A stretch of 64,000 bases of DNA from Synechococcales cyanobacterium CRU_2_2 (GCA_012034805.1 JAAUOP010000007.1:1003-65002), one strand, 5' to 3'; positions 9,541 to 24,175 are shown, counted from the first letter of the stretch. Program-made: numbers and translations. The notes: generated from the letters alone by a model not told the origin.

Positions 9541-10242
9541 CTATTTGGGCATCGGCAGCCCAAACGTCCCATGAAAATCTTCCTTGACCTTGAGGGTGAG
9601 ACGACGAGAAATTTGGCGAACCACTTGGCGGAGGAGGCGATCGCCTGTACTCTGAATCATCTGCTGGGGGAGTATTTGGATAAATCGCGGAAACTGTAGC
9701 GTTACGCCCAAATCCAGCACCCACTCCACATGGGTCATCGCCGCAACTTCCGCCTCCGTGGTCTCCACCGCACGCAGCTCTAGCACCGCCTGAAAATCGA
9801 CGCTGTAGCCCACCGACTCATACCCCGGCACGTCGATAGTGCGAATGCGATAGACCCGGTCTTCCTGGGGCAAGAGGTCTAGACCGATTTGGGGGGCGAT
9901 CGCATACCCTAGCGCCCCAAAGCTCCCAAGAGAAAGTGCATAACCCGTATTCCCGAGGGGCTTCGCTTCCATCGGAGCCGCACAGCGACGGAACCAATCC
10001 TGGTGGTTGTCGAGATAGTCCGCCACCTGCTGGGTATCCGCACACATCTCCATACAGTCTGTGAACCGACTGCGGAATTCGGTCAATGGTTTACCCTCGT
10101 CGTTACCGACTATTTGTTCCACCCCCAATCTGGCACTGGCTGCCCCCGTAGGATCCACAAAACCATTATCAACGTAATGGGATGGGTTGCGCGAGGTTGG
10201 CTGGTTTTCGAGCGGAAATTGAGAGGTGGAAGAAATTGACAT
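9541..10242 (-). CDS. DUF1997-like protein
   Basis: ...ADYLDNHQDWFRRCAAPMEAKPLG..YALSLGSFGALGYAIAPQIGLDL...RIRTIDVPG... The likely start is the internal ATG at 10242 (MSISSTSQ). Confidence 0.5.
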   Translation of the reverse strand: MSISSTSQFPLENQPTSRNPSHYVDNGFVDPTGAASARLGVEQIVGNDEGKPLTEFRSRFTDCMEMCADTQQVADYLDNHQDWFRRCAAPMEAKPLGNTGYALSLGSFGALGYAIAPQIGLDLLPQEDRVYRIRTIDVPGYESVGYSVDFQAVLELRAVETTEAEVAAMTHVEWVLDLGVTLQFPRFIQILPQQMIQSTGDRLLRQVVRQISRRLTLKVKEDFHGTFGLPMPK

Positions 10243-10578
10243 AAAACTGATGTCTGAAGTCGAACAGTGTGATTGGGACAGTGTGATTAGAACGCTTACA
10301 TCTAGAAAGACACAGTCGCTGACAGAAAGATTCCGCAACAACCACCGAAGCAAAGGGACACCTAACCTCCAGGGAAGGGACTTGGGAACGAGCCGCAGCC
10401 TTGCGACCAGAGCTGCAACTGAATCTATGAGCTGACTTCACCCTACAATGTAACGAATTTTGTAGCTTTAGCACCATAGCCGTTTTACGCAAGCCAGGGT
10501 GTCAGGCATGAACCTTACGGCTCAAGGAGACGTGAATCCACTGGCATCTGAGCCTCCAATTTGGGCGATCGCACTCTG

Positions 10579-10598
10579 CTTGAACTTTGCAGTTCAAG
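10579..10598. promoter_or_regulatory. Perfect palindrome cttgaact-ttgc-agttcaag, followed by a 20-bp tandem repeat (10604-10643)
   Basis: Read directly. Lies in the DUF1997/MarR divergent intergenic region. The palindrome is a possible MarR-type operator. Confidence 0.25.
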
Positions 10599-10832
10599 TT
10601 TTCGGGTCAGCGGCTTTGGCTTTGGGTCAGCGGCTTTGGGTCGCGGGTGAGCCATCTCGGTGAGCTCAAGATCCAGATCCACTCGCTAAACCCAAGGAGG
10701 GGGTCAAAGTCCCCATCCAATGGAGGCCTGAGCCCCCTCATCCCGCTGCCCCTGGTGGAAACTCACGACCAGTCTGATAAATTACTGGCGTTGCCCCTAG
10801 GGATAACAATCATCATTTCGGGGTTCAGTGCT

Positions 10833-11339
10833 ATGACTCGTGCGGTAGGCATCTATGACTCAATCGATCGGATCTTGGATGGCTGGGCTCAGTCTCACCC
10901 TCAACTCGACTTTTCTGCCAAAGATGTAACCCTGCGACTCCGGCGGCTCACGGCCTTGATGGAAGCGCGGTCAGCTCCAACTCTAGAACAACTCGGCTTA
11001 AAGCCCGAAATTTTTACGCTCATGGCAGAACTGCACCGCAGAGGTCACCCTTACGACAGCACACCTCGGTACCTGATGTCTTACCTGGAGATGAGTTCCG
11101 GCGGCATGAGCAATCTGCTGGATCGGGCGGAGACGAGCGACTTTATTCGGCGCGTTCCCGATCCTCTGGACGGACGCAGCGTGGTGGTTCAACTCACCCC
11201 TTTGGGGCAAGAGCGCATCGAGGCCGCACTCAAGGCTGAGACTCAGCAGGAGCAGGCTTTGTTGACCCCTTTGAGCCGTCGAGAGCGGGAAACCCTGGCC
11301 CAGCTTTTGCGTAAGCTGATTTGTGCGGCCGTGGCTTAG
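10833..11339 (+). CDS. MarR-family transcriptional regulator
   Basis: Winged-helix region ...YLEMSSGGMSNLLDRAETSDFIRRVPDPLDGRSVVVQLTPLGQE. ATG at 10833 gives a typical 168-aa MarR. Confidence 0.75.
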   Translation: MTRAVGIYDSIDRILDGWAQSHPQLDFSAKDVTLRLRRLTALMEARSAPTLEQLGLKPEIFTLMAELHRRGHPYDSTPRYLMSYLEMSSGGMSNLLDRAETSDFIRRVPDPLDGRSVVVQLTPLGQERIEAALKAETQQEQALLTPLSRRERETLAQLLRKLICAAVA

Positions 11340-11419
11340 AGGTTTAGCATCCGTATCGGCACTCATATCACTAAACTAGGTGGAGTGCTCACCTGAGCTT
11401 TGCCCTCCACGGTTGTCCC

Positions 11420-12703
11420 ATGCGTCCTCGGCAAGATCTCGCTGAACTCTTCTCAACTTTCCTGCAGCTCGAAACCGGCACTAGCGGTCGCTGGAGCCAT
11501 GAACCGACGCTCAGACGGAGCATACTTCGAGCATTGCAGCTCCAACCGAACCAGGCGGCCAAAGCGACCAACGCGTTCTGGGTTAGTTATTGGTTGGAGC
11601 AGCACCGGCAACAGCATTCATTCCCCTCGTCCGCGTCGGTCTCATCTGCGCCGACTTCATCTGGACATCGCCTCTCCCAACACCATTTACTCGCCTATAC
11701 CCAGGAAGCCTGCTATTGGGCCAGCTACCGGTTTCACAAAACAATGGCCCAGTTTGCCGCGATTTCTGATCAGACCTTGGCTGACTATTTTCAGATCGCC
11801 CAGGCCCAATTTTCCAAGGTGCTAGCTGGGTTTTCACCAGACCGGGGAGCCACCCTTGAGACCTACGCGGAGCTGGCCTTTACCCATCGTTTGAAAGATG
11901 CGGTACGACAACAGAAAACCTTGGATATTTGTAGCAACTGGTCACTGTTACGTCGAACCAGCCGAAAACAGCTTCAAGAAACCTTAGAATACCAATCTCT
12001 CTCTCCCGCTCTCCAACAGCCCTATCTGTGGGCTTGGCTCTGCTTTCGAGAGGGCTGGGTTGGGGCGTCTGCACCTGGGGCGAGGCGACGGCTGGCTCCT
12101 GCGACTGAGGATTGGCAGGCGATCGCCCAAGCCTACAACCAATCAAAACCGCCGGAGCAACCTCTGGCCACCCCCGAGCAACTCGAGCAGCGGTTAACCC
12201 AGATGGCCGCTTGGCTGCGGGCTTATCTGCATCCATCGGTTCAGTCCCTCAATCAACTGCAGTATGGTGAGGAAGGGGAAGAGCGCTTAGCAGGTCTCTC
12301 AGATCCCACCGCTTGGGCACAAAGCGAGGGTTTTGTGGGTAGCCCTTCGTTGTTGACGAATTTGATTGCCGAAGAAGAGATAAACGAACGACAACGGCAG
12401 CGATCGCAGCTCGACCAAGTTCTCGCCCAAGCGATTCAGACCCTCAAGCCCGAGTGGCAGACCGTTCTCGACTTGTACTATCGTCAGGGTCTGATTCAAT
12501 CCCAAATTGCCAAGCACATCGGGTGTTCTCAGCCATCCGTGGCGCGGTATCTGTTGCGAGCCAGGGAAGCGTTGTTGAACGCCTTGGTCACCTGGAGCCA
12601 GCAAACCTTGAATATTGTCTCGAGTCCCGATCGTATAGCCCAGCAGGGTGACGCAATGGAAGAATGGTTGATGGGGCACTATGGTTCTCAATCTAGAGAG
12701 TGA
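11420..12703 (+). CDS. Extended sigma-70-family RNA polymerase sigma factor (cyanobacterial type associated with DUF1822)
   Basis: C-terminal region 4 HTH (VLDLYYRQGLIQSQIAKHIGCSQPSVARYLLRAREAL). N-terminus MRPRQDLAELFSTFLQLE and a long insertion between the region 2-like and region 4 parts. 427 aa. Confidence 0.7.
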   Translation: MRPRQDLAELFSTFLQLETGTSGRWSHEPTLRRSILRALQLQPNQAAKATNAFWVSYWLEQHRQQHSFPSSASVSSAPTSSGHRLSQHHLLAYTQEACYWASYRFHKTMAQFAAISDQTLADYFQIAQAQFSKVLAGFSPDRGATLETYAELAFTHRLKDAVRQQKTLDICSNWSLLRRTSRKQLQETLEYQSLSPALQQPYLWAWLCFREGWVGASAPGARRRLAPATEDWQAIAQAYNQSKPPEQPLATPEQLEQRLTQMAAWLRAYLHPSVQSLNQLQYGEEGEERLAGLSDPTAWAQSEGFVGSPSLLTNLIAEEEINERQRQRSQLDQVLAQAIQTLKPEWQTVLDLYYRQGLIQSQIAKHIGCSQPSVARYLLRAREALLNALVTWSQQTLNIVSSPDRIAQQGDAMEEWLMGHYGSQSRE

Positions 12704-12712
12704 GGAGGTTTT

Positions 12713-14155
12713 ATGGCGGTCTTGAGCGAGGTGGTAGCCGATGCGCGACATTGGTGGATTCCCTTGGATCCGGAGGTCGTTCAGCGCAGCTGGCAGCACA
12801 GCCAGCGGCACAGCCAACCGGGGCGATGTTGGGATGACTACCTGGGCCGATTGTGTTTGGTTGGTCTGGCGGAGGGTTTGGCAGAATTGGAGGCGTTGGG
12901 GCTGAGCAAAATTCAACCTGGATTATCGCCAAGCCTGTCGGTTTGGACTGCCGTTTGGGAGGGAGTTGGGGGCTGCGTGCTGCGGGTTATGCCGGAGATG
13001 GTGATAGCAGAAGGTGTCACGGCTGAGGGTGTCACGGCGGAACGGGTCACGGGAAATGACAGAACGACAGACGAAATCCGGTTGGTAGTAATTCCAGGGG
13101 ATGAGATTGACGCGGAAGCCTTAGTGGTGCCCCAGGAATGGGTGGATGTGCCGGATTGGCGGGGTCACTATTATTTGGCGGTTCAGCTTTGTGGCGAGGC
13201 CGAGGCCGCCGAGGTAGGGGACGAAGAATGTGAGCCCTACGGTTTGAGAGTCTGGGGCTATGCAAGTCATCGTCAATTAAAGGAAAGGGGCGATTATGAC
13301 CCCCAGACGCGCAATTATGTTCTATCACGGCCAGACCTACAGGAGGATCTGACAGCCTTGAGTGTGACGCTGCGCCATTGCGACACCCAGGGAACTCAAG
13401 CCGTAGTGGAACCCTTAGCTGTGGTGTCAGCGGTGCAACGGGAAAATTTGCTCGAGCGCCTAGGGGATCCGGCCTTGGCATTTCCTCGGTTAGCGGTTCC
13501 ATTTGCGCTCTGGGGTGCTTTGATTCAGGATGAGGACTGGCGTAAACGGTTGTATCAGCGACGTTGTCAGGGCTGGGTGGGCCAAGTGGATGCTCAGGTG
13601 ACGCGGTTGAGTCAGTGGCTGGAGGGACAGTTTGAGCAGGGGTGGCGATCGCTCACGGATTTGCTCGGCCCAGGGACAGCATTTGCACCTCAGTTGCGCA
13701 GTGGGATGGTTGATTCGAGGGAGATTGGCCAGAGCGATCTCACCTCGGGCTTCCCGCTAAAACGCGCGAAGTCCATTATCCTGGGCGGAATTTCTGGTGA
13801 AATGACTGACGAAAGCGCCGATGATGTATCCAGAGTGATATTACTCGTTTCAGTTGTTCCCACATCAATTCAATCAGACTCAGTCTTGCAGGTGCAGGTT
13901 CAACTTCATCCTCTTTGCGGACAACAATTGCCCCCAAGGGTGCGACTCGTCTTACACGATCCAGAGCAGGTCATGGATCTACAAGCGATTGAGAGCGGGG
14001 CGGCGGATACCTATCTACAGCTCACGCCCCTCACCGGCAGGGTAGGGGAAACCTTCCAAGTGCGAATTGAGTACCCAGTCTCTAGTCAAACTCACCCCAG
14101 CCAGGAGCAAGATGCCGCAGCCCCTTGGACGGTCACTGAATTATTCCGGCTGTAA
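12713..14155 (+). CDS. DUF1822-like protein
   Basis: RBS gaggagg 6 nt upstream. The segment LVVIPGDEIDAEALVVPQEWVDVPDWRGHYYLAVQL...LRVWGYASHRQLK matches my recollection of the DUF1822 core. The stop overlaps the next ATG (TAATG). Confidence 0.6.
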   Translation: MAVLSEVVADARHWWIPLDPEVVQRSWQHSQRHSQPGRCWDDYLGRLCLVGLAEGLAELEALGLSKIQPGLSPSLSVWTAVWEGVGGCVLRVMPEMVIAEGVTAEGVTAERVTGNDRTTDEIRLVVIPGDEIDAEALVVPQEWVDVPDWRGHYYLAVQLCGEAEAAEVGDEECEPYGLRVWGYASHRQLKERGDYDPQTRNYVLSRPDLQEDLTALSVTLRHCDTQGTQAVVEPLAVVSAVQRENLLERLGDPALAFPRLAVPFALWGALIQDEDWRKRLYQRRCQGWVGQVDAQVTRLSQWLEGQFEQGWRSLTDLLGPGTAFAPQLRSGMVDSREIGQSDLTSGFPLKRAKSIILGGISGEMTDESADDVSRVILLVSVVPTSIQSDSVLQVQVQLHPLCGQQLPPRVRLVLHDPEQVMDLQAIESGAADTYLQLTPLTGRVGETFQVRIEYPVSSQTHPSQEQDAAAPWTVTELFRL

Positions 14156-16615
14156 TGGACAGGCCTATGATGGACAGCGCTTGGACGGCTCCGATACAAA
14201 CCGAAAAACAGGTCATTCTTTCCCTCGCTGGGGGGACGTTAGAGCAAGGCTTTCCAGCAGTGACGATGCAACTGAGTTCGGATCAGCCCCCGACCCAACG
14301 GCTGAAGGTAGTGGGTTCGCTCTCTCCAGCCCCCCATTTGCATCAGCTGTACCACGACTGGCGAGCTCACTATCTAGCCCTCCAGGATCGGCTCAGAATT
14401 CAGCTCGTGGCTGATCACAGCCCCAATCAGGTCTCGCGAGAACGGTTCGAACACCTGTCTGAGCGATTCGGACAGGCGTTAAATCAATGGTTGAGTCTGC
14501 CAGGATTTCATCGGATTGATCAGCAACTGCGGCTATATCTCAATCCCTCAGATCCCATTCGTCTCATTTTGGAAACCGATTGTCCACACACGCGACGGTT
14601 GCCTTGGCATTTATGGCTGTTTTTCCACGACTATCCCCAGGCTGAATTTGCCCTCGGCAGTCTCAACTACCGCCCCACTCAGGCCCCAGGTCTAGCTGCT
14701 CGCTCCAGTTCTATTCGCTCCGGTTCTATTCGCTCCGGTTCCGTGCGAGTCTTGGCAATTTTAGGAACTTCCGTCGGCATTGACGTAGAACGCGATCGCG
14801 CCCTCCTCACCCAACTCCCCCAGACGAGCTCCAATTACTGGTAGAGCCCTCGCGATCGCAACTCCACGCTGCCCTCTGGTCGGATCTAGGGTGGGATATT
14901 CTCTTCTTTGCGGGCCATAGCCAGAGCCAAGCCGGAGATAACAGCGGCCAGATTGCGATTAATGATCGCGAATCGTTGACGATTGAACAGTTGGAATATG
15001 CGCTGGGAGCGGCGATCGTCCGAGGTCTACAACTGGCCATTTTCAACTCCTGTGACGGTCTTGGCCTAGCCCGAGGCTTGGCAAATTTGAATCTTCCCCA
15101 GCTGGTGGTCATGCGAGAGCCGGTACCCGATCGCGTGGCACAAACCTTTCTGACCCATTTTTTGCAAGCGTTCTCCTCCGGGCGCTCCTTCTATGGTGCT
15201 GTGCGAGAAGCGAGGGAGAAACTTCAGGTCCTGGAAGATCAATTTCTGTGCGCGTCTTGGCTACCGGTGATTTATCAGAATCCAGCGGCGATTCCACCCA
15301 GTTGGCAAAGCTTAGCCAGTACTTCGGAGCTAGCCCTAAGCACGAATTCCCGACCTCGGACGATCGCCGCCTTGAAGTTGCACTCGGCTTTAATGCGGGG
15401 AGCGATCGCCGCGATCGTCATCCTAGGCTTACGTTACCTGGGCCTGTTACAGCCCTTTGAACTGTTAGCTTACGATCTCTTGCTCCGCCAACGCCCCGCT
15501 GAAACCACGGATCCGCGCATTTTAGTCGTGGAGGTAACTGAAGAGGACACCAACCGCTATGGCTATCCCCTAGAAGACAAACTTTTGGCTCAGTTGCTTC
15601 AAAAACTTTATCAATCCCAGCCCCGTGCGGTCGGGTTGGATATGCATCGGGCCCAGCCTCGAGGAGAAGGACGCGCCGAATTTTTAGAACAGTTTCAACA
15701 GCATCCGAGTCTGAGTACGGTTTGCTGGGGAAATCAGAATGATCAGAACTTTGCCACCCCGCCTGAATTCGATGCCGTTCAGCAAACCGAACAATTGGCC
15801 TTCAGCGATCTGTTGCCAGACCTCGCACCGTTTGCTTGGCTTTCCTCAGGAACTGTGCGTCGCCAGCTGCTTTCCGTCGATCCAAACCTAGGAGAACTCT
15901 CGGCCTGTACTGCGGTTCAGGGGCTCAGTCTAAGGTTGGCTCAAGTGTTTCTGAGCGCTGAACAGCGAACGATTCGTGTGGACGGGCAAAGACAACTGGG
16001 GTTTTGGATCAAAACGACCTTCTACCAAAGCCTGCCCCGACGAGTTGGAGCCTACCAACACCTAGATGGGCTGAGCAGTCAGATCTTGATCAACTACCGC
16101 TCAGCGCAACCCGGACAACGCGTGAACCTCGAGCAGGTATTGTTGGAGCAACTGCCACCGGAGATGGTGCGCGATCGCATTGTCCTCATCGGCACCACAG
16201 CCCCCGTGGGCGGAGATATCAAGCAAACACCTTTGGGTGAAATGCCAGGCGTTTGGGTTCATGCCCATCAGCTCAGTCAGTTGCTCAGTGCCGTTCTCGA
16301 CCAGCGCCCGCTCCTGGGGACGTTGCCCCAGTGGAAGGATTTCCAGTGGGGAGATGGGCTATGGGTAATGGTTTGGACATTCCTCGGGAGTGGCCTGGGC
16401 TGGGGTTTGAGCTGTGGCCCGACACAGCATTTACGACGCGTCCAGTCGTTGATTTGGGGAACTGGGCTGGGGGGGTCGTGGTGTTGTATGGCATGAGTTT
16501 GGGGGCGATCGCCAGGGCCTTTGGTTGCCCCTGGTTCCCTCTGTTCTCGGTTGGGGGGTGGGTTATGCCGCTAGCCTTCGTCCTAGTTTTCGTTCCGGTT
16601 TTCGTTCCGGTTTAG
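14155..16615 (+). pseudogene. CHAT-like (caspase-fold) domain fused to a membrane CHASE2 sensor domain; reading frame broken twice at homopolymers
   Basis: Candidate His/Cys dyad ILFFAGHS and LAIFNSCDG. TM helix AIAAIVILGL, then the CHASE2 signature LQPFELLAYDLLLRQRP...ILVVEVTEED...AVGLDMH, then C-terminal TM helices. Frame 1 to 3 at C5 (14817-14821). Frame 3 to 2 at G7 (16469-16475). Confidence 0.75.
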
Positions 16616-16648: not shown

Positions 16649-17409
16649 ATGAATACGACAATTCTCCCTCTCGTCAAGCACACCCCTCTGGTCAGAATTC
16701 TGAAGGGTTTAGCACTATGGACTCTAGCCTGTGGTTTTGGGACTCAGTTGATGCAACCAGCCGTTGCTCAATCAACTGTACAGCCAGCTGAGCGAAGAAC
16801 TCATCAGATTAGCCAGTCTAGACCCGCTCGATCGCGACCCTCTACCCCCAAACCACCCCGCAGTCAGCGACCCAACCAAACCCGAGCCGGGGGCTCACTG
16901 AGTGAATCCTGTTCGCGTTCTCAGCAAGTTCTGTCTGCCCTGGTTCCGACTCAAAACCCAGTCACCACTCGCAAATCCCAACCCACCGTTTGGGTTTATG
17001 TACCCTACACACCCGCTGAGATTCAACAGGCAGAGTTTGTGATCAATGTTGGGATTGCGGAAAAGAACGGTTGTATCGACAAGCGATCGCCCTTCCTCCA
17101 ACCCCTGGATTTGTCGGCCTGACCTTGCCCGCTGAAGTGAGCCTAAAACCCGGTATTCCCTATCGCTGGTACTTGACGCTGCAATGCGTCGGGCCTAAAG
17201 CTACGGCCCAGTTCAGTGTGGATGCAGGCATTCAGGTGGTTGGATCGGAACAGGGGGAGGGGACGATCGCTTGGTATGACGAGGTGGAGGCGATCGCCCA
17301 GCAGTTGCAGTTGCAGCCGGAGAATCGAGAGGTGCGCGATCGGTGGCGTCAGCGCTTGGCAGAACTCGGGCTGGCAGAACTTGCCAATCAGCCGTTACAG
17401 AAGCTTTAG
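16649..17409 (+). pseudogene. DUF928-like exported protein, one frameshift near 17061-17073
   Basis: Signal peptide. QPTVWVYVPYTPAEIQQAEFVINV... continues in frame 1 as LYRQAIALPPTPGFVGLTLPAEVSLKPGIPYRWYLTLQC, the pattern I associate with DUF928. Confidence 0.6.
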
Positions 17410-17450
17410 CCCCCGAGACTGAACCTGAGCTGTATGGGTGCATTCGCTGT

Positions 17451-17495
17451 CTATTACAACCCATTCTATTACAACCCATTCTATTACAACCAATT
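17451..17495. repeat. 15-bp tandem repeat x3 (ctattacaacc[c/a]att) spanning the stop codon of the TPR-CHAT gene
   Basis: Read directly. The third copy contains the last codons plus the stop (NWL*) of the minus-strand gene that ends at 17484. Confidence 0.9.
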
Positions 17496-20171
17496 GCCCA
17501 CCAGCACATAGGTTGCCCACACATGGGGCGTTGTATAGCCCTCCTCCAGCAACGATAACTGCGCCGATCGCAGGGCCTCCGCCCGACTGATTGCTGGATT
17601 TTGCAACGCCTCATAAAACCGTAGCATCAAAGCCGTATTCGGCACATCCTGAGCCTCCCATAGCGTCGAAACCACACTCTGAGCTCCTGCCTGCACTGCC
17701 AACCCCGCCATGCCCAAAACAGCTCGGTTATCTCCTTGAGCCGTAGAACAGGCACTCAAAACTAATAGCTCCACCGGACTCGGCGTACCTGTTCTGGCAT
17801 CGCGCCCCCGCAGCAAAGGGCCTAGTTCTTGCCCTTTGAGCAACCCTTCGTAGGCCACCACAAAGGTTTCTTCTGGATCTGAGCTAAAAACACCGTGGGT
17901 TTTGAGATGAATCGCTGAAAACGATTGGCTAGAGAGCGACTGGGTTAAATTGGCTTTGGTGAACAACTCATTGACCAAGGGCTGGGGTGTGGCAAAGAGA
18001 TTGCGAATGCCTTCGAGTTCTGGTGCGAGGTTGGCGATCGCCGGAAAACTGCGCCCTTCTAGCTCCTGGGGCCGACCCACACCACCCAAAAATACGGAGA
18101 GATTGCGCGATCGCCGTTTGGGATCAAACAATTGCAGCCGAGGCGACAAAGCCACCGCATAGCGGCTAATGAGATAATCCTCCCCGTCGTAGAGCGCGGC
18201 CATCGGAATATTGCGCAAATCTCCATCCAAGACAAACACTAAGGTTTCAACCGACTGGTCTGTGAGGGCAGACTCAAAGGGTTTGATCAACCAGTCATGA
18301 ACCGTGGTGAGGCCTGCGATCGCGTCCGGCGTCCGTCCGGGTGTGGCTAAGTCGTATCGAAGTTGTTGCAGTTGTACCTGCATATCTTTGCGTCCTAGAC
18401 GCACTTCAGTATATTGCAACGGCTGCTGGCCAGGGGGCTCTAGGATAATGACGAGGCGATCGTCCAGAATGAGCGGGTAAAGCTTGGCCGCTTTCGGATC
18501 AACGGCCACGGCCCCGAGAGCCACCGTTTGCGCCAGCTTACAACCGAGGAAATTTTCGAGTTCTGCCAGTTGCAAGGCATCAACCTGTTGAATGGCCTGT
18601 TTTAGGACAGTTTGACTGGGATTGCCGTCCTTGGCGATCGATTCGTCCAACAGCAGCGCAACTAACTCTCGGTAAACGGGCTCTACATCGTCACGGAATG
18701 AAAACTGTAATTCTGGATTACTGGAGAGTAAATCACCGCGAATAGCCGCCAAACTCGTGACCGCATCGCGATAGAGGGCGATCGCCCCTGGCAAATCCTG
18801 CTGCTGGCGCAACAGTCGTCCCAGTTGCCACTCCCAACGATAACGCAAACTTGAAAGTTGTAAGGGATCCAAGGTCAGAAGCGCCTGTTCTGTCCAATAT
18901 TGGGCCTGGGCCCATGCGCCTTGCTGCTCTAACCAGGCTCCCCGCTGACCCAAGGCATGGGCGATCGCGGCAGGATCCGCAAGGGCCTTGGCCTGTCGTA
19001 GGGCAGATTGTATCAAGGGCTCTGGATTTTGTTTGAGCTGGATCAGGCTTTCAGCCAGGTTCAGCTGGGCTTGGACAGTGGCGCGGCTGGCTGGCTGGCT
19101 GGCGAGGTAGAGCGGTAGTTGAGTCTGGAACTGGGAGGCGATCGCGATCGCCTCTGGGGCGTCCATCTCGACCAAAAGGGCCAAACGATTTAATCGACTT
19201 TGCCATTGCAACGGATGGTCTTGGGACAGGGTTTCGGATTGCCGATAAAACTGCAATGCGCTCTGTTCAGCAGCTTTAGCCTCTGCCTGTTTCCCCAAAG
19301 CTTGCCATCGGGTGCGCAAGACCTGGGCACCATTGCCCAGCTCTAGGTATGTTTTGGCTTGTTGATCGATCGCCTCTGGCGGAATCAGGCCGAGGCTTTC
19401 CTGCAGAATCTCTTGCGATCGCTGGGGTTTCCCGATCTGTCGCAAGACAGTGCCGAACAACTGCAGACCCGTGGCCCTTACGTTGGCACTCCAGGGAACT
19501 CCCTTTTGCGATGCTTGGAGTTGCTGATAGCTTTCCTCCAACTGTTCCTCGGCTTGGCCATTGAAGCCCAATGCCATCAGGGCTTGGGCATGATTAAGGC
19601 GCGTTAGCAGCTGACCCTCTGAATCGCCCGCCTCCCCATAAAAAGCCTGGGCAGACTGCCAGGCTTGCTGGGCCTGCTCTATTTTTCCCTGTGACCAATA
19701 CAATCGCCCCTGGACATTGAGAATTCGGGCTTGAATGGATGGCTTGCTGAGGGCAAGAGACGCGTTTGCAGAATCAGTTGTGACTAGGGTTTTGGCTTGT
19801 TTGAGATGAACCTCAGATTGATTCCATTGCCCGAGCTGCTGTTCGGCCAGGGCCAGATAGCTCAGGAGTAGGGCTTGGTGTTGCGGGTGAAGTTTTTGCT
19901 GTTCGAGGGCTGTTTGCCAAAGGGCGATCGCCGCTTGGAAATTTCCCTGTCCGTAGCGTTGAAGACCTTGCTCCCATACTTGTGTTGGGAATCGCTCACT
20001 GGGCGATCGTTCACTGGGCGATCGTTCACTGGGCGATCGTTCACTGGGTAACGGCTCACTCACTGGCTGGGCCCATGCAGGCAATCCGCTGAAGCCGTCA
20101 GCAATGCAAAGTATCAGGCCTAGGGAGCCAGCAGTCATTCGAGTCAGGCGAGACCAGCAACAAACAGCCAT
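17484..20171 (-). CDS. Secreted TPR-repeat CHAT-domain (caspase-like) protein
   Basis: Signal peptide ...GLPAWAQP, (SERSP)x4, long TPR-like helical repeats, and a C-terminal CHAT domain with AIHLKTHG and LLVLSACSTAQGD. Confidence 0.85.
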   Translation of the reverse strand: MAVCCWSRLTRMTAGSLGLILCIADGFSGLPAWAQPVSEPLPSERSPSERSPSERSPSERFPTQVWEQGLQRYGQGNFQAAIALWQTALEQQKLHPQHQALLLSYLALAEQQLGQWNQSEVHLKQAKTLVTTDSANASLALSKPSIQARILNVQGRLYWSQGKIEQAQQAWQSAQAFYGEAGDSEGQLLTRLNHAQALMALGFNGQAEEQLEESYQQLQASQKGVPWSANVRATGLQLFGTVLRQIGKPQRSQEILQESLGLIPPEAIDQQAKTYLELGNGAQVLRTRWQALGKQAEAKAAEQSALQFYRQSETLSQDHPLQWQSRLNRLALLVEMDAPEAIAIASQFQTQLPLYLASQPASRATVQAQLNLAESLIQLKQNPEPLIQSALRQAKALADPAAIAHALGQRGAWLEQQGAWAQAQYWTEQALLTLDPLQLSSLRYRWEWQLGRLLRQQQDLPGAIALYRDAVTSLAAIRGDLLSSNPELQFSFRDDVEPVYRELVALLLDESIAKDGNPSQTVLKQAIQQVDALQLAELENFLGCKLAQTVALGAVAVDPKAAKLYPLILDDRLVIILEPPGQQPLQYTEVRLGRKDMQVQLQQLRYDLATPGRTPDAIAGLTTVHDWLIKPFESALTDQSVETLVFVLDGDLRNIPMAALYDGEDYLISRYAVALSPRLQLFDPKRRSRNLSVFLGGVGRPQELEGRSFPAIANLAPELEGIRNLFATPQPLVNELFTKANLTQSLSSQSFSAIHLKTHGVFSSDPEETFVVAYEGLLKGQELGPLLRGRDARTGTPSPVELLVLSACSTAQGDNRAVLGMAGLAVQAGAQSVVSTLWEAQDVPNTALMLRFYEALQNPAISRAEALRSAQLSLLEEGYTTPHVWATYVLVGNWL

Positions 20172-20235: not shown

Positions 20236-20259
20236 TTTTGTCCGAAATTTTGTCCGAAA
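20236..20259. promoter_or_regulatory. Perfect 12-bp tandem repeat (ttttgtccgaaa x2) upstream of the TPR-CHAT gene
   Basis: Read directly. Lies 65-88 bp upstream of the start at 20171, in the 96-bp gap after the FHA-like gene. Confidence 0.3.
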
Positions 20260-20267
20260 GTGTAAGT

Positions 20268-23200
20268 CTAATCCAACAGCTTGCAATGTTTGACCTGCGT
20301 GGAGGTTGTGGACTTGGCTGCAAGGATGATTTGTCCCTGGGCGTTGACGTCCCAGTGTGTGGCTTCAGCAAGCGGGTTGGGCACGGGAGTCCTGCTGGAG
20401 TGGACTTGTACTTGTGAAGCATTGAGCCCAGGGGGCAGTCGGAGATCGTCGAGGATGCTGGTACTGGTGAGGGGGGCGCTGGGGTTGGGAGGGAGGCCAC
20501 CCCGTCCGGTGACGAAAAACTCACCTTGGCTTGTTTGTCCTGTGGTGTTGGTCGTTTGGCAACCCTGGCTGGGTTGGGGAATATTGGTAGTGCTGGGGAG
20601 TTGAATCGCACCTTGGGCCGGATTGACATTCAGTCCTACTAAATTGAGGGTACCGTTGCTGCCAAACTCTGAGCTCGCGCTGATATCATTGGTCGCTTGT
20701 TGCCGTAATTGATTAAACGTTTTGCCCTTGTCGTTCAGCGTGAAATTGAGGATGCTGTTAGCATTGATGGTGACATTACCACCCCGACCCGTGAAAGCAT
20801 TGGCAATGATATCATTGTTCTCACCAGGCAAGGCCATAACAAAGGGAGCATTAATGGTGATATTGCCACCATCTCCACCGGACTGAGCCGTGCCTGCAGT
20901 GGCAGAAATCAGGCTACTTTGGTGCATGAGCAAGACATCTCTCACTCCCAAGTCAATGTAGCCACCCTGTCCAAAATCTGTGGAGGCTAGAAGTTGGCCC
21001 TCGCTATCCAAGGTTAATTGATTGGATTGAACGGAGAGGGTGCCAGCCGCTCCAGTTGCTGGTCGGGTTCCTATGAGAATACCGGTGATATTTTTGAGGG
21101 TGTTTGTAGCCAGATTAAGATCAGATGCACTCCCGGAGGCAACTGTTATCGTAGCGCGATCGCGCACCTGAACAATGGGCGATCGCACAATTAAATCGCC
21201 AGCCTTCCCTTGATCCGTCGTCTGAGCGTATAAACCACTGGCAAAGCCATCTGGATCGGTACCTTGCACTAGCAATTTTTCTGAGGCTACGACACTCAAC
21301 GTCCCGCCTTGACCTGTGGCAAATGTAGATGCTGAGATTGCGCCCCATTTTGGATTGTAAGTTGAGGTGTGGTGACGCTCAAATCGCCCGCATTACCGAT
21401 GCCAAATGTATCGGTTGAAAATGCTGTTGGCGTTCGGCCTGTGGGGGACAGAATCGATCCATCCAGACTAATCGACTCGGCGGCATTGACCGTCAAGTTA
21501 CCCCCCTGCCCCCTGCCAAATGCTGAAGTAGATAATATGCCTCCTGTCTGCAGAATGACCTGACCCGCGTTCACCGTTAAATCTCCAGCTTTACTGGGAC
21601 TAAAACTAGATGTTGCTAAACGGCTGGGAGACTTGCCATCGGGTGAGATGCCGCTAATATCGACGACACTTGCTGTAATGTTCACATTGCCGCCAAGCCC
21701 TGCTGGAGAGTCAATTGCATTAACATCGCCCGTTGTCGAGGCAATGATAGCGCCATCCCGCAATTGTAAGTGTCCCGCTTCGATCGCTACATTCCCGCCA
21801 TTCCCGGCACCAAGTGTATTAGCGACAATCTGAGACGATTGGCCTGTAGCCGATGTACCTGCCAGGGTTAGACTATCTGTAGCGACAATCGTAATGTCAC
21901 CGCCACGACCCGCCCCTACGGTACCGGCCACAATGTTGGTACCATTCTTGAGGCTGATGGTAGGAGCGCTGAGGCGAATCTCACCCGCCTGCCCTGCGCC
22001 TGCTGTACCACTATTGATCTCGCTATCCGTGAGGGCGATCGCTCCTGCTTGAATGGTGATCGCCCCGGCTTGCCCCGTTCCCGCTGTACCCGTAAGTAAA
22101 CGGCTGTTACTGGAAGCAAACGTGCCCTCATTCGTGATTTGGATATTGCCTCCATTCGCATTGCCAAAGGTCGCAGCATTCAGACTCGAGGTTGTAATAT
22201 TGCCGCTTGGGGCGAACAGTTGAATCGATCCAGCTCCTCCAGCCGCAGAGTCAGTCCGAACAAGTCCTTGGGTGGTGATATCACCGCTGGTACTGGTCAA
22301 GCGAATATCGCCCCCCTGACCCAAGCCAAAACTCCCTGAATCAATGGTGTCTTGCGTAGTAATATCTTGTGCTGCTGTGATAGCGATTGCTCCACCATTC
22401 CCGAACTGGGAGGTTGTCGTTAATTGACCCGTAATATTGACCCTGCCCGTTTCACTAGTCAAGCGAACCGTTCCTCCTGATGCCGATGAAAAGGAGATGG
22501 CTGTGAGAAATCCGGCCACAATATCGCTATATCCTGTGAGCGATATATTTCCGGGTATCAATCCATTTACATCAATGAGAGATGTCTCAATCCCCCCACT
22601 CCGACTGAGCAGTCGAATCGAACCACTAGGGGGGCCACCGAGGCCAAAGGACCGTATTGCAAAGATGCGAACATTATCCTTCGCCAAAACTGTGACATCC
22701 CCACCCCTGCCTGAGTCACCAAAAGGCCCCCGTGCTGCTATGGCACCGATATTAGCACCGCCGCGTGAATCAATCACCACAGTCCCTGCATTACCGGGAA
22801 AGCCATCTACATCAATCTCTCCCTCGACCTGAATCGAGCCACTGAGGGCAGAGTTTGGGGCGTACTGATTCGTTAGAAAAACGAGGCGATCGCTAATATC
22901 ACCGCCGTTGGCTGCTCCAATACTCCCGATCACAATGTCGGTGCTGGTTGGGGTACCTGTACTTGTGGGGGGTGGCGTAAAGCCAAGGGGAGATCCTGTC
23001 AAACTGGGGTTGCCAAAGGCAGTTGTGCCTGCCCGGATATCTAGGGTGGGACGAGCACTTCCATCGATCGCCAAGGTTGTTCCATCGGAGAGAGTCACGG
23101 TTTCCTGAAGCGACGTTGCTGGCGTACCCGCTCCTGTGAGAGTGACACGATCGGAAATCGTGACACTGCCCCCTGCCAGAATATGCAGAGATGTGCCCGT

Positions 23201-24175
23201 ATAGCTCGCAAAACTGACATCGCCGCTGGCACGAAGTACCGGGTCGTGGGGACTGACTAAACTTCCCAAAGCGCCATCCAGTTGCTCAATCCGCAGATTA
23301 CCGCCCGCTTGCCCATGGATATCTCCCAGAACTGGATTTGCGGATCGCCAGATCATATCCCTACCGGACCATAGGCCACTTTGGGGATGATTCAGGGCAG
23401 TCATTTCGACTTGGCGATCGCCTTGAATCAAAAGCTGTCCCTGTGCCGCGACCTGCAAGGGCTGCGTCAGGCTATCGCGGAGTTGCACAGTATCCGAAGC
23501 ATACAAAACTAAATCGCGTCCAGCTTGTATTTGTCCCCGCCCATCAATGCGGCTTGCCGCTAGGGTTAAGTTCTGGGGAGACTGAAGTTGCGCTCCCTCA
23601 ATTACCAAAGCTCCCGAGGCGTTCCCCCACTGCAATCCTGGTGTAACGTTCAAGGTTAGCAATGGTGGTGCTTGGGGATTTGTGGCACTGAATTTGCTGC
23701 CATTGCCAAACGTCAATGCATTAGCTGTGGTTGCCAGGAAGGAACCACCAATATCCAGCGCAGCATGGGAACCGAAGAGAATTCCATTGGGATTGAGCAG
23801 AAACAAACTGGCGCTGCCATTGGCCTTAATCAGCCCATCAATGCTGGAGGGATTACTACCTGTAACTCGAGTAAAAATCGCTTGAATTTGTGAGTCGTTA
23901 TCAAACCACGCTTGTCCCCCTGCAGGAATCGAGAATTCCTTAAAACTGTGGAACAGATTGGAACCTCGGCTCGTGCCGCCATTGATGGTGCAACCTCCTG
24001 TGCAGGGGGCGATCGCAGAGCCATTCACCTGTGTTGACAAGGTTCCATCTCCGGTGATTTGTGCCAGAGCTACAGCTGGTGAGGTGGCTAAAATAACACC
24101 ACCAAGTATCCCTAATCCGCCGCCTTTCGTAGACTGAAACCTTTGTTTTTGAAGCATATCCAGCATCCAGGTCAA
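20268..24175 (-). pseudogene. Giant TPS-domain (filamentous-haemagglutinin N-terminal domain) beta-helical exoprotein, copy 1; one frameshift near 21335-21345
   Basis: TPS motifs NLFHSFKEFSIPAGG and FLLNPNGILFG. G/T/S-rich beta-helix repeats. ORFs 21296..24175 and 20268..21299 join as ...LTIQNGAQ/ISASTFATGQGGTLSVVASEKL once one base is restored. Confidence 0.8.

Follow-up and report, generated by a model that had tools for sequence, protein, structure and literature searches.

Kaur et al. (2021; PMC8195603) catalogued, by gene neighbourhood, a sigma factor of the extracytoplasmic function (ECF) type and a DUF1822 protein encoded beside EACC2-caspase genes. The genes were placed among counter-invader systems, and a signal-induced peptidase activation feeding into the sigma factor was proposed; one sentence of that paper deals with this gene neighbourhood, with no experiment, and in it the sigma factor is called ECF and DUF1822 a tetratricopeptide repeat (TPR) protein (PMC8195603). 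No later study using the terms of this gene set was found in the literature. Here we analysed such a pair, a long sigma factor gene followed by a DUF1822 gene, in 64,000 nucleotides (nt) of Synechococcales cyanobacterium CRU_2_2 (GCA_012034805.1 JAAUOP010000007.1:1003-65002; this whole stretch is the window). To our knowledge, no member of the DUF1822 family has been studied experimentally under that name.

Two further systems are close to the pair in design. In Anabaena sp. PCC 7120, sigma-HetZ is a sigma factor of about 400 amino acids (aa) with N-terminal, middle and C-terminal insertions, described by its authors as 'ECF-type with insertions' (Hu et al. PNAS 2026, PMC13342950). The co-transcribed PatU3 inhibits sigma-HetZ via contacts to two of the insertions and to sigma-4 (PMC13342950), and PatU3 is cleaved between Arg117 and Ser118 by HetF, a CHAT protease of the membrane (PNAS 2022, PMC9457339). 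In the Craspase branch of type III-E CRISPR, the TPR-CHAT protein Csx29 cleaves Csx30, by which the ECF-like sigma factor CASP-sigma is inhibited (Strecker et al. Science 2022, PMC10028731), and the trigger of Csx29 is target RNA bound by Cas7-11 (PMC10028731).

The corresponding features of the window are:

11420-12703, plus strand: long sigma-70 family factor, 427 aa (TIGR02937, Pfam r4_2 and AlphaFold2 model)
12702-12708, plus strand: Shine-Dalgarno sequence GAGGAGG of the DUF1822 gene, read in the sequence; its start overlaps the sigma stop codon by that codon's final two bases, and the ATG follows 4 nt further on
12713-14155, plus strand: DUF1822 protein, 480 aa, pI 4.66 (PF08852)
14155-16600, plus strand: EACC2-caspase(CHAT)-CHASE2 receptor-protease gene (Pfam CHAT and CHASE2); its ATG and the stop codon of the DUF1822 gene overlap in TAATG

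This order is that of the 2021 gene set, in which the genes of a sigma factor and of DUF1822 are joined by one for a caspase with a constant N-terminal domain and a C-terminus that varies (CHASE2 in this case); the window caspase is frameshifted. The TRADD-N fusions and trypsin-type C-termini of that paper were both recovered in this work. The differences are that the sigma factor analysed here has large extensions and a folded insert, that the DUF1822 model is not a TPR fold, and that about half of the sampled pairs have no adjacent caspase.

The window shares three roles, in the same order, with sigma-HetZ, PatU3 and HetF: an extended sigma factor, a soluble downstream-encoded protein that would be its inhibitor, and a membrane CHAT protease with an extracytoplasmic domain. 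The likeness is one of description. It has its limits: in the window sigma factor, sigma-4 is placed about 80 residues later and the addition at the C-terminus is far shorter; hetF and hetZ are not neighbours, while in the window the protease gene comes directly after the pair; and nothing links the window module to heterocysts. Language-model similarity (ESM Atlas, used for leads only) reached 0.90 for a cluster related to HetZ; for PatU clusters it was 0.82, which is at noise level. When the sigma-family profile was run against three Nostocaceae genomes (presence of hetZ unconfirmed there), no HetZ-sized weak match appeared, the weak matches being a P450 and unrelated proteins, and a search with the HetR-site pattern gave only short, hetP-sized open reading frames (ORFs; 147 and 157 aa) and no 400-aa hetZ candidate.

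With Csx29, Csx30 and CASP-sigma the module has in common a CHAT-family protease, a soluble putative inhibitor without a classical anti-sigma domain and a dedicated sigma factor, all encoded together; there, proteolysis relieves inhibition. By contrast, the trigger here would be the CHASE2 membrane sensor, no CRISPR genes are present, and Csx30 is absent among the structural matches of DUF1822. The RpoE-RseA-DegS/RseP and SigW-RsiW systems also have a co-transcribed, tightly spaced sigma factor and regulator, and release in the window module would likewise be by signal-dependent proteolysis. Unlike their regulators, DUF1822 has no anti-sigma domain, zinc motif or transmembrane helix; the protease is caspase-like and not of the site-1/site-2 kind, and the window sigma factor, at 427 aa, carries an insert and extensions not found in ECF factors. 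The HetZ and Craspase precedents, which were shown experimentally, supply the logic of the full model favoured here, namely that DUF1822 inhibits the sigma factor and is removed by a CHAT protease, to which we assign a probability of roughly 0.45 from the comparative evidence set out below.

That the sigma factor and DUF1822 form a real, conserved functional unit is practically certain. The scan for relatives of the sigma factor, with one genome per species, gave at least 579 relatives, and 80 loci were retained for the neighbourhood counts. DUF1822 was directly downstream on the same strand in 76 of the 80 loci (median gap 19 nt; less than 100 nt in 70 of the 76, several genes overlapping). 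Conversely, a long sigma gene was directly upstream of 28 of the 30 best-scoring DUF1822 genes in 301 genomes of the phylum. The adjacency is far beyond chance. Pairwise distances of the two proteins were highly correlated (r = 0.94 over 71 pairs; reached by 0 of 999 permutations); at the level of sequence distances this shows co-inheritance without partner swapping, and by itself it is no proof of contact. The pair is also present on the plasmids pCC7120alpha (Nostoc PCC 7120) and pNPUN03 (N. punctiforme), annotated as 'sigma-70 family RNA polymerase sigma factor' and 'DUF1822 family protein'. The proteins of the PCC 7120 pair are WP_323790861 and WP_010999862.

Natural fusions were also searched for. 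There was none between the sigma factor and DUF1822 among 114 close matches. One of the representative proteins, P0314 (626 aa, locus L161:1355-5727), joins a sigma-4/GerE-type helix-turn-helix (HTH), TRADD-N and DUF1822 in one chain, and its gene is followed by the gene of a CHAT-COP23-trypsin protein; a cluster of the ESM Atlas holds 50 TRADD-N-DUF1822 proteins. The sequence-only reading of the window had proposed a functional partnership outside the known ECF and anti-sigma classes. The conserved adjacency, the distance correlation and the HTH-TRADD-N-DUF1822 fusion lend this strong comparative support, and DUF1822 fits no known anti-sigma class; the pair is not unprecedented, having been catalogued already (PMC8195603).

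The 427-aa protein is a genuine sigma-70 family member, made of sigma-2, sigma-4 and three family-specific additions. ORF translation and Pfam gave the 427-aa and 480-aa ORFs, the N-terminus MRPRQDLAELFSTFLQLE of the former, its C-terminal region 4 and the EWVDVPDW...YYLAVQL core of the latter (DUF1822 residues 142-159), all as the sequence-only reading had described them. The layout of the sigma factor, in residues, is:

1-88: N-terminal extension, with a beta-hairpin at 13-27 and region-1.2-like helices (AlphaFold2 model)
about 89-170: sigma-2; the model is helical up to about 170
173-270: five-helix insert (AlphaFold2 model)
275-310: flexible, low-confidence linker (AlphaFold2 model)
326-394: sigma-4 (AlphaFold2 model)
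403-426: C-terminal helix (AlphaFold2 model)

The general sigma-70/ECF model of NCBIfam, TIGR02937, matched residues 90-389 (81 bits against a cut-off of 42.9), and Pfam Sigma70_r4_2 (PF08281) matched residues 334-385 (33.2 bits against 25.7). Region 2 was seen in the family: Pfam Sigma70_r2 matched 75 of 102 members, and in the family profile regions 2.1-2.3 aligned to residues 44-106 of SigF (1l0o_C) and to FliA, with the motif D-x-F-Q...F-D/N-P...Y-A...R-D-x-L-R-Q. The AlphaFold2 model (102 sequences; mean predicted local distance difference test score, pLDDT, 85.7) was compared with known structures by VIA-align. Residues 18-165 superposed on mycobacterial SigA domain 2, with region 1.2 included (root-mean-square deviation, rmsd, 4.5-5; Z 9.4-9.6), and residues 326-394 on region 4 of E. 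coli sigma-E (2h27_D; rmsd 1.2 over 69 residues). The top whole-chain matches in Foldseek were sigma-2/3/4 factors (SigD, sigma-S, sigma-32 and SigB). The region 2 core-binding determinants, whose absence had been named beforehand as refuting the proposed pair, are thus present (TIGR02937, SigF/FliA alignment, SigA superposition).

Between regions 2 and 4, about 155 residues (approximately 170-325) have no Pfam or PDB sequence match, in agreement with the more than 150 unassigned residues claimed from the sequence. In the model a helical domain fills the position of region 3. That the insert is sigma region 3 was rejected: a profile of residues 168-312 against Pfam and PDB sequences gave no region 3 and no other family. 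The signals of sigma-2 and of sigma-4, the structural matches and an insert without detectable relatives together indicate a real sigma factor that is extended at the N-terminus, carries an insert specific to its family and has a helix at the C-terminus. Strict ECF (group 4) sigma factors have only sigma-2 and sigma-4, joined by a short linker, and typically fewer than 250 aa. A plain ECF factor was ruled out by the 427 aa, the 88-residue N-terminal extension and the five-helix domain plus linker between sigma-2 and sigma-4; a group 3 factor was rejected as well, no recognisable region 3 being found in the sequence profiles.

More than 100 full-length homologues were collected, of 390-435 aa and nearly all with a cyanobacterial label. 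Conservation in this family spans both ends of the protein (M1, R4, F11, F14, W25, H89, Q95-E96, D122, W206, R267, Y354, R376 and L417). The window sigma factor retains the invariant residues of its family in an intact, full-length ORF, and a sigma factor 97% identical to it, P0003, was found elsewhere.

The DUF1822 gene starts (ATG 12713) shortly after the sigma stop codon (TGA 12701-12703). The tight junction with a strong ribosome-binding site was correctly recognised from the sequence alone, GAGGAGG being present; the spacing is 9 nt and not the 10 claimed. PF08852 matched the 480-aa product with 163.5 bits (cut-off 25; 9.8e-48), only from profile position 73 onward. The maximum 19-residue hydropathy of the protein is 1.47, which indicates no transmembrane helix, and the family alignment has no conserved Cys/His motif, so that the earlier description of a soluble protein without transmembrane helix or zinc motif stands. 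The whole family is uniformly acidic (median pI 4.64) and soluble. It comprises 2,466 representative clusters at E <= 0.001, with up to 12 profile matches in each of the cyanobacterial genomes sampled. In family f31 (genomes of 1.7-2.3 Mb, of the same phylum and of non-photosynthetic size), nearly every genome had one weak DUF1822 Pfam match (E 1e-6 to 1e-12).

The model of DUF1822 (74 sequences; pLDDT 82.9; predicted template modelling score, pTM, 0.71) has three parts:

residues about 5-228: PD-(D/E)xK-like N-domain (model)
between the N-domain and the C-domain: helical middle (model)
residues 349-480: immunoglobulin-like (Ig-like) beta-sandwich, the C-terminal part of about 130 residues (model)

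The description of DUF1822 as a TPR protein was therefore rejected, the model being alpha/beta nuclease-like plus Ig-like and not TPR-like. Fold matches of the N-domain were DpnI (Z 6.7), Hjc (Z 6.5 and 5.5), I-Ssp6803I (Z 6.4), D212 (Z 6.3) and NhoI (Z 5.4), all under the Z of 8 that the alignment tool advises as secure. An independent ESM Atlas model matched a 'restriction endonuclease' cluster (TM-score 0.70 by target, DUF1822 residues 16-223). Acidic residues E130, D133, E136, E142, D145 and D152 are conserved. The catalytic pattern D...(D/E)xK was not found: the ExK position reads E-L-E/R (E-x-E/R), and the sole invariant lysine, K190, is in a later helix. Considering the modest fold scores and the lack of conservation of the canonical (D/E)xK lysine, we call the fold nuclease-like and its catalytic status doubtful.

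A 15-nt tandem-repeat insertion (13016-13052) gives the window protein a lineage-specific AEGVT-type insertion at residues about 97-120, missing from nearly all relatives. In-frame 15-nt tandem repeats are also found at 14700-14741, 17450-17495 and 19991-20048, inside the caspase and TPR-CHAT genes. Arg329 of DUF1822 is kept in 70 of the 74 sequences, with Lys in the other four, and is followed by Ser or Gly; in the model, R329-S330 sits at the start of a variable, low-confidence (disordered) linker. The conservation of this arginine, the Ser or Gly after it and the disordered linker make the position a reasonable candidate protease site, comparable to the Arg117-Ser118 cut in PatU3.

Class I (ASD/ZAS) anti-sigma factors have anti-sigma domain helices, an HxxxCxxC zinc motif and usually a transmembrane helix. 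DUF1822 has no anti-sigma domain, zinc motif or transmembrane helix and is outside the known anti-sigma classes. The family profile gave no significant match to PDB sequences (one at E 4.4). One weak structural match was to the beta-sandwich sensor domain of RsgI4 (Z 5.8).

The genes downstream of the pair were then compared. The third gene was EACC2-caspase(CHAT)-CHASE2 in 39 of the 80 loci; it encodes a protein of about 800 aa with an N-terminal constant region, CHAT and the CHASE2 membrane sensor. This adjacent CHAT-CHASE2 gene, which is key context, had been left out of the sequence-only reading. Genes for DUF928, TPR-CHAT and TPS exoproteins are often near the pair. In loci without the caspase, 25 sampled downstream proteins from 21 loci were unrelated housekeeping proteins (psaA/B, gyrA, penicillin-binding proteins), which indicates that the sigma-DUF1822 pair is a unit of its own.

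Other forms of DUF1822 keep to the same surroundings. Short-form DUF1822 genes (about 322 aa) adjoin caspase-CHASE2 in 19 of 20 cases, often with TPR-CHAT, and have no sigma gene. Of 20 other long forms, 17 lie behind a sigma-like gene that is more divergent (380-608 aa), and 15 have a caspase gene after them. Forms that diverge further still come after short sigma factors of ECF-like type, with 226-243 aa. For a 241-aa ECF-like protein upstream of a divergent DUF1822 (L164:5129-5854), the weak best NCBIfam match was the type III-E CRISPR-associated RpoE-like sigma factor (E 6e-4, far below the cut-off). The idea that the short form lacks the nuclease-like core, which would then be the sigma-binding part, was dropped, as the motifs of that core are retained, in compact form, in the short proteins. 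DUF1822, with links both to CHAT proteases and to HTH proteins of the sigma type, is thus the hub of these systems.

We propose the following mechanism. From the spacing of the genes, DUF1822 would be made in step with the sigma factor from one transcript. The two proteins probably bind each other directly. DUF1822 would then most likely act as an anti-sigma factor, keeping the sigma factor off RNA polymerase or promoters. Release would most likely take place when a CHAT (caspase-like) protease cuts DUF1822, the candidate site being Arg329-Ser/Gly at the start of the disordered linker. In the arrangement seen here, the gene next downstream would supply the protease, a CHAT-CHASE2 receptor in the membrane, and an outside signal would thereby be turned into transcription. 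In the sequenced population this receptor-protease gene carries frameshifts, so that the switch may be locked or may depend on another CHAT protease. More tentatively, DUF1822 may be an anti-sigma factor of a new structural class, in which a degenerate nuclease-like domain is combined with one of Ig-like type. It would hold insertion-bearing sigma factors across Cyanobacteria and be cut at Arg329-Ser/Gly by receptor-type CHAT proteases such as CHAT-CHASE2, with stand-alone pairs served in trans by other CHAT proteases; we regard this general form as possible, at less than even odds.

Several observations weigh against the full model. About half of the sampled sigma-DUF1822 pairs have no adjacent protease gene. 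In four of the 80 loci (L012, L014, L017 and L030), all from Limnoraphis/Lyngbya, the only clade seen with a sigma gene lacking an adjacent DUF1822, an alpha-amylase family gene follows the sigma gene. No anti-sigma inhibitory (sigma-binding) domain was found among the structural matches of DUF1822, and the nuclease-like look of its N-domain also fits an effector or DNA-binding role. The window protein departs from its family at near-invariant columns (E130D, E136A, D152H, N45G and W55G). Hexamer enrichment in the 250 nt upstream of 78 sigma genes gave AT-rich words only and no motif common to most loci; the window showed no shared promoter motif, and no target promoter could be defined. Finally, the CHAT-CHASE2 gene of the window carries two 1-nt frameshifts, near 14825 (14817-14830) and near 16468 (16460-16476).

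The promoter searches also covered individual candidates. A scan for sigma-70-type promoters upstream of the window sigma gene gave nothing. The block TATCACTAAACT (11366-11377) is conserved between the window and its closest relative; the window holds no further copy of it. At 20236-20259 there are two perfect tandem copies of the 12-bp TTTTGTCCGAAA, in the 96-nt gap upstream of the TPR-CHAT gene. This repeat had been put forward earlier as a promoter lead; this was not borne out, as recurrence of the motif in the window is not beyond chance (6 matches against 7 expected).

DUF1822 could alternatively belong to the caspase system. In a module for conflict or cell death it would serve as adaptor, substrate or nuclease-like effector, and co-transcription of the sigma factor would do no more than raise expression of the locus. 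Such a role agrees with the occurrence of short-form genes next to TPR-CHAT and caspase-CHASE2 with no sigma gene, but about half of the sigma-DUF1822 pairs are found by themselves, without a nearby caspase, in housekeeping surroundings. The restriction-endonuclease-like fold matches are in its favour as well; however, their Z scores of 5.4-6.7 are below the secure level of the tool, and the canonical lysine is not conserved, E-x-E/R being found instead. Kaur et al. (PMC8195603) class these genes with counter-invader systems, and TRADD-N-DUF1822 fusions form their own cluster of 50, while PADLOC defence models gave no match. Taken together, we consider this explanation unlikely.

The state of the locus itself raises another explanation. 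The frameshifts split the CHAT-CHASE2 gene into 14155-14844, about 14817-16496 and a C-terminal tail, and tblastn of an intact 831-aa orthologue (L009:12662-15157) against the window matched in three frames with 67-72% identity. The frameshifts were checked by comparing the window with independently assembled contigs from public runs. Contigs from one stromatolite run carry both frameshifts as in the window. In a second stromatolite run, from another study, the sequence is identical over 1.4 kb except for an extra G after 14825 that restores the frame, and more distant relatives have an extra base at both 14825 and 16468. As they recur in independent contigs, the frameshifts look like real alleles and not errors of the window assembly, and the broken CHAT-CHASE2 gene looks like a natural loss-of-function allele of the sensor-protease. 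In the closest relative (L009; 69% identity, a complete-chromosome metagenome-assembled genome), the reverse of the window is seen: the sigma gene (10001-11294) is split into two overlapping ORFs and caspase-CHASE2 is intact.

Further genes accompany the operon in the window:

16649-17122, plus strand: DUF928 protein, frequent fourth gene of the cassette (PF06051 at 1.9e-9)
17484-20171, minus strand: TPR-CHAT protease, 895 aa, convergent with the sigma operon (CHAT 7.2e-50 and TPR, Pfam)
21296-24175, minus strand: exoprotein with TPS domain, filamentous-haemagglutinin type (PF05860 at 8.6e-54)

DUF928 is at the same position in six other loci (L009, L018, L019, L035, L044 and L079). The TPR-CHAT gene, intact in the window, encodes the second caspase-like protease of the cluster and recurs near DUF1822/caspase genes in many loci. 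The TPS exoprotein is present in 19 of the 80 loci and also beside the pair on pCC7120alpha and pNPUN03. A MarR-family regulator gene (10587-11339) has the same orientation as the sigma gene and ends 80 nt before it; homologues were found in none of the 80 related loci. The genome of the window contains two further loci of this kind. Contig C266 (1030-1910) has a decayed second sigma-DUF1822 copy, with several stop codons in the sigma part followed by an 83-aa DUF1822 fragment. On contig C103 (L001:1492-3436, minus strand), a third DUF1822 gene (437 aa) is directly after the gene of a 218-aa protein that matches Sigma70_r2 only, without a region 4 match, and that may be a truncated or very divergent partner.

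The window module may accordingly be viewed as a decaying relic that is no longer a switch, whatever the family does elsewhere, a view compatible with any of the other readings. The two frameshifts, found also in independent contigs of one run, the second copy full of stop codons on C266, and the substitutions at several near-invariant positions plus the repeat insertion in the window DUF1822 point this way. We nevertheless hold it to be improbable: both ORFs of the pair are unbroken and of full length, with the invariant residues of the sigma factor kept; the 97%-identical P0003 exists elsewhere; an otherwise identical contig from another study has an intact frame at 14825; and the TPR-CHAT protease gene of the cluster is intact. 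A role for DUF1822 as a positive partner, that is, a co-factor or DNA-binding subunit for promoter recognition or opening, is quite unlikely: pairing and co-inheritance are as strict as in obligate partners, the N-domain resembles DNA-binding PD-(D/E)xK enzymes and a fusion with a sigma-4-type HTH exists, but uniform acidity (pI about 4.6) is unusual for a DNA binder, the sigma factor already has sigma-2 and sigma-4, short-form DUF1822 occurs with caspases and without a sigma factor, and the characterised cyanobacterial analogue PatU3 is an inhibitor (PMC13342950).

The gene set had already been catalogued in 2021 (PMC8195603), and experiments published in 2022 and 2026 provide precedents for its likely logic. 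This work adds that the sigma factor is not a plain ECF factor, that DUF1822 is nuclease-like plus Ig-like and not TPR, and that about half of the sampled pairs stand alone. It also adds DUF1822 as the common link of sigma factors and CHAT proteases, a candidate Arg-Ser/Gly site and a natural HTH-TRADD-N-DUF1822 fusion. The window alone is of modest weight, being one more copy, from a stromatolite metagenome genome, with a frameshifted receptor-protease gene; the module is widespread and a specialist would not be surprised by it. The presence of the pair on pCC7120alpha and pNPUN03, in genetically tractable strains, makes the idea directly testable. If DUF1822 is a protease-sensitive sigma inhibitor, a mechanism would be provided for many annotations that now read 'sigma-70 family' or 'DUF1822 family', and the numerous CHAT/caspase-like proteases of multicellular cyanobacteria would be tied to transcription. 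There would be a one-protease route from an extracellular signal to transcription, and the HetZ-PatU3-HetF heterocyst switch would be one specialised instance of a larger, general design.

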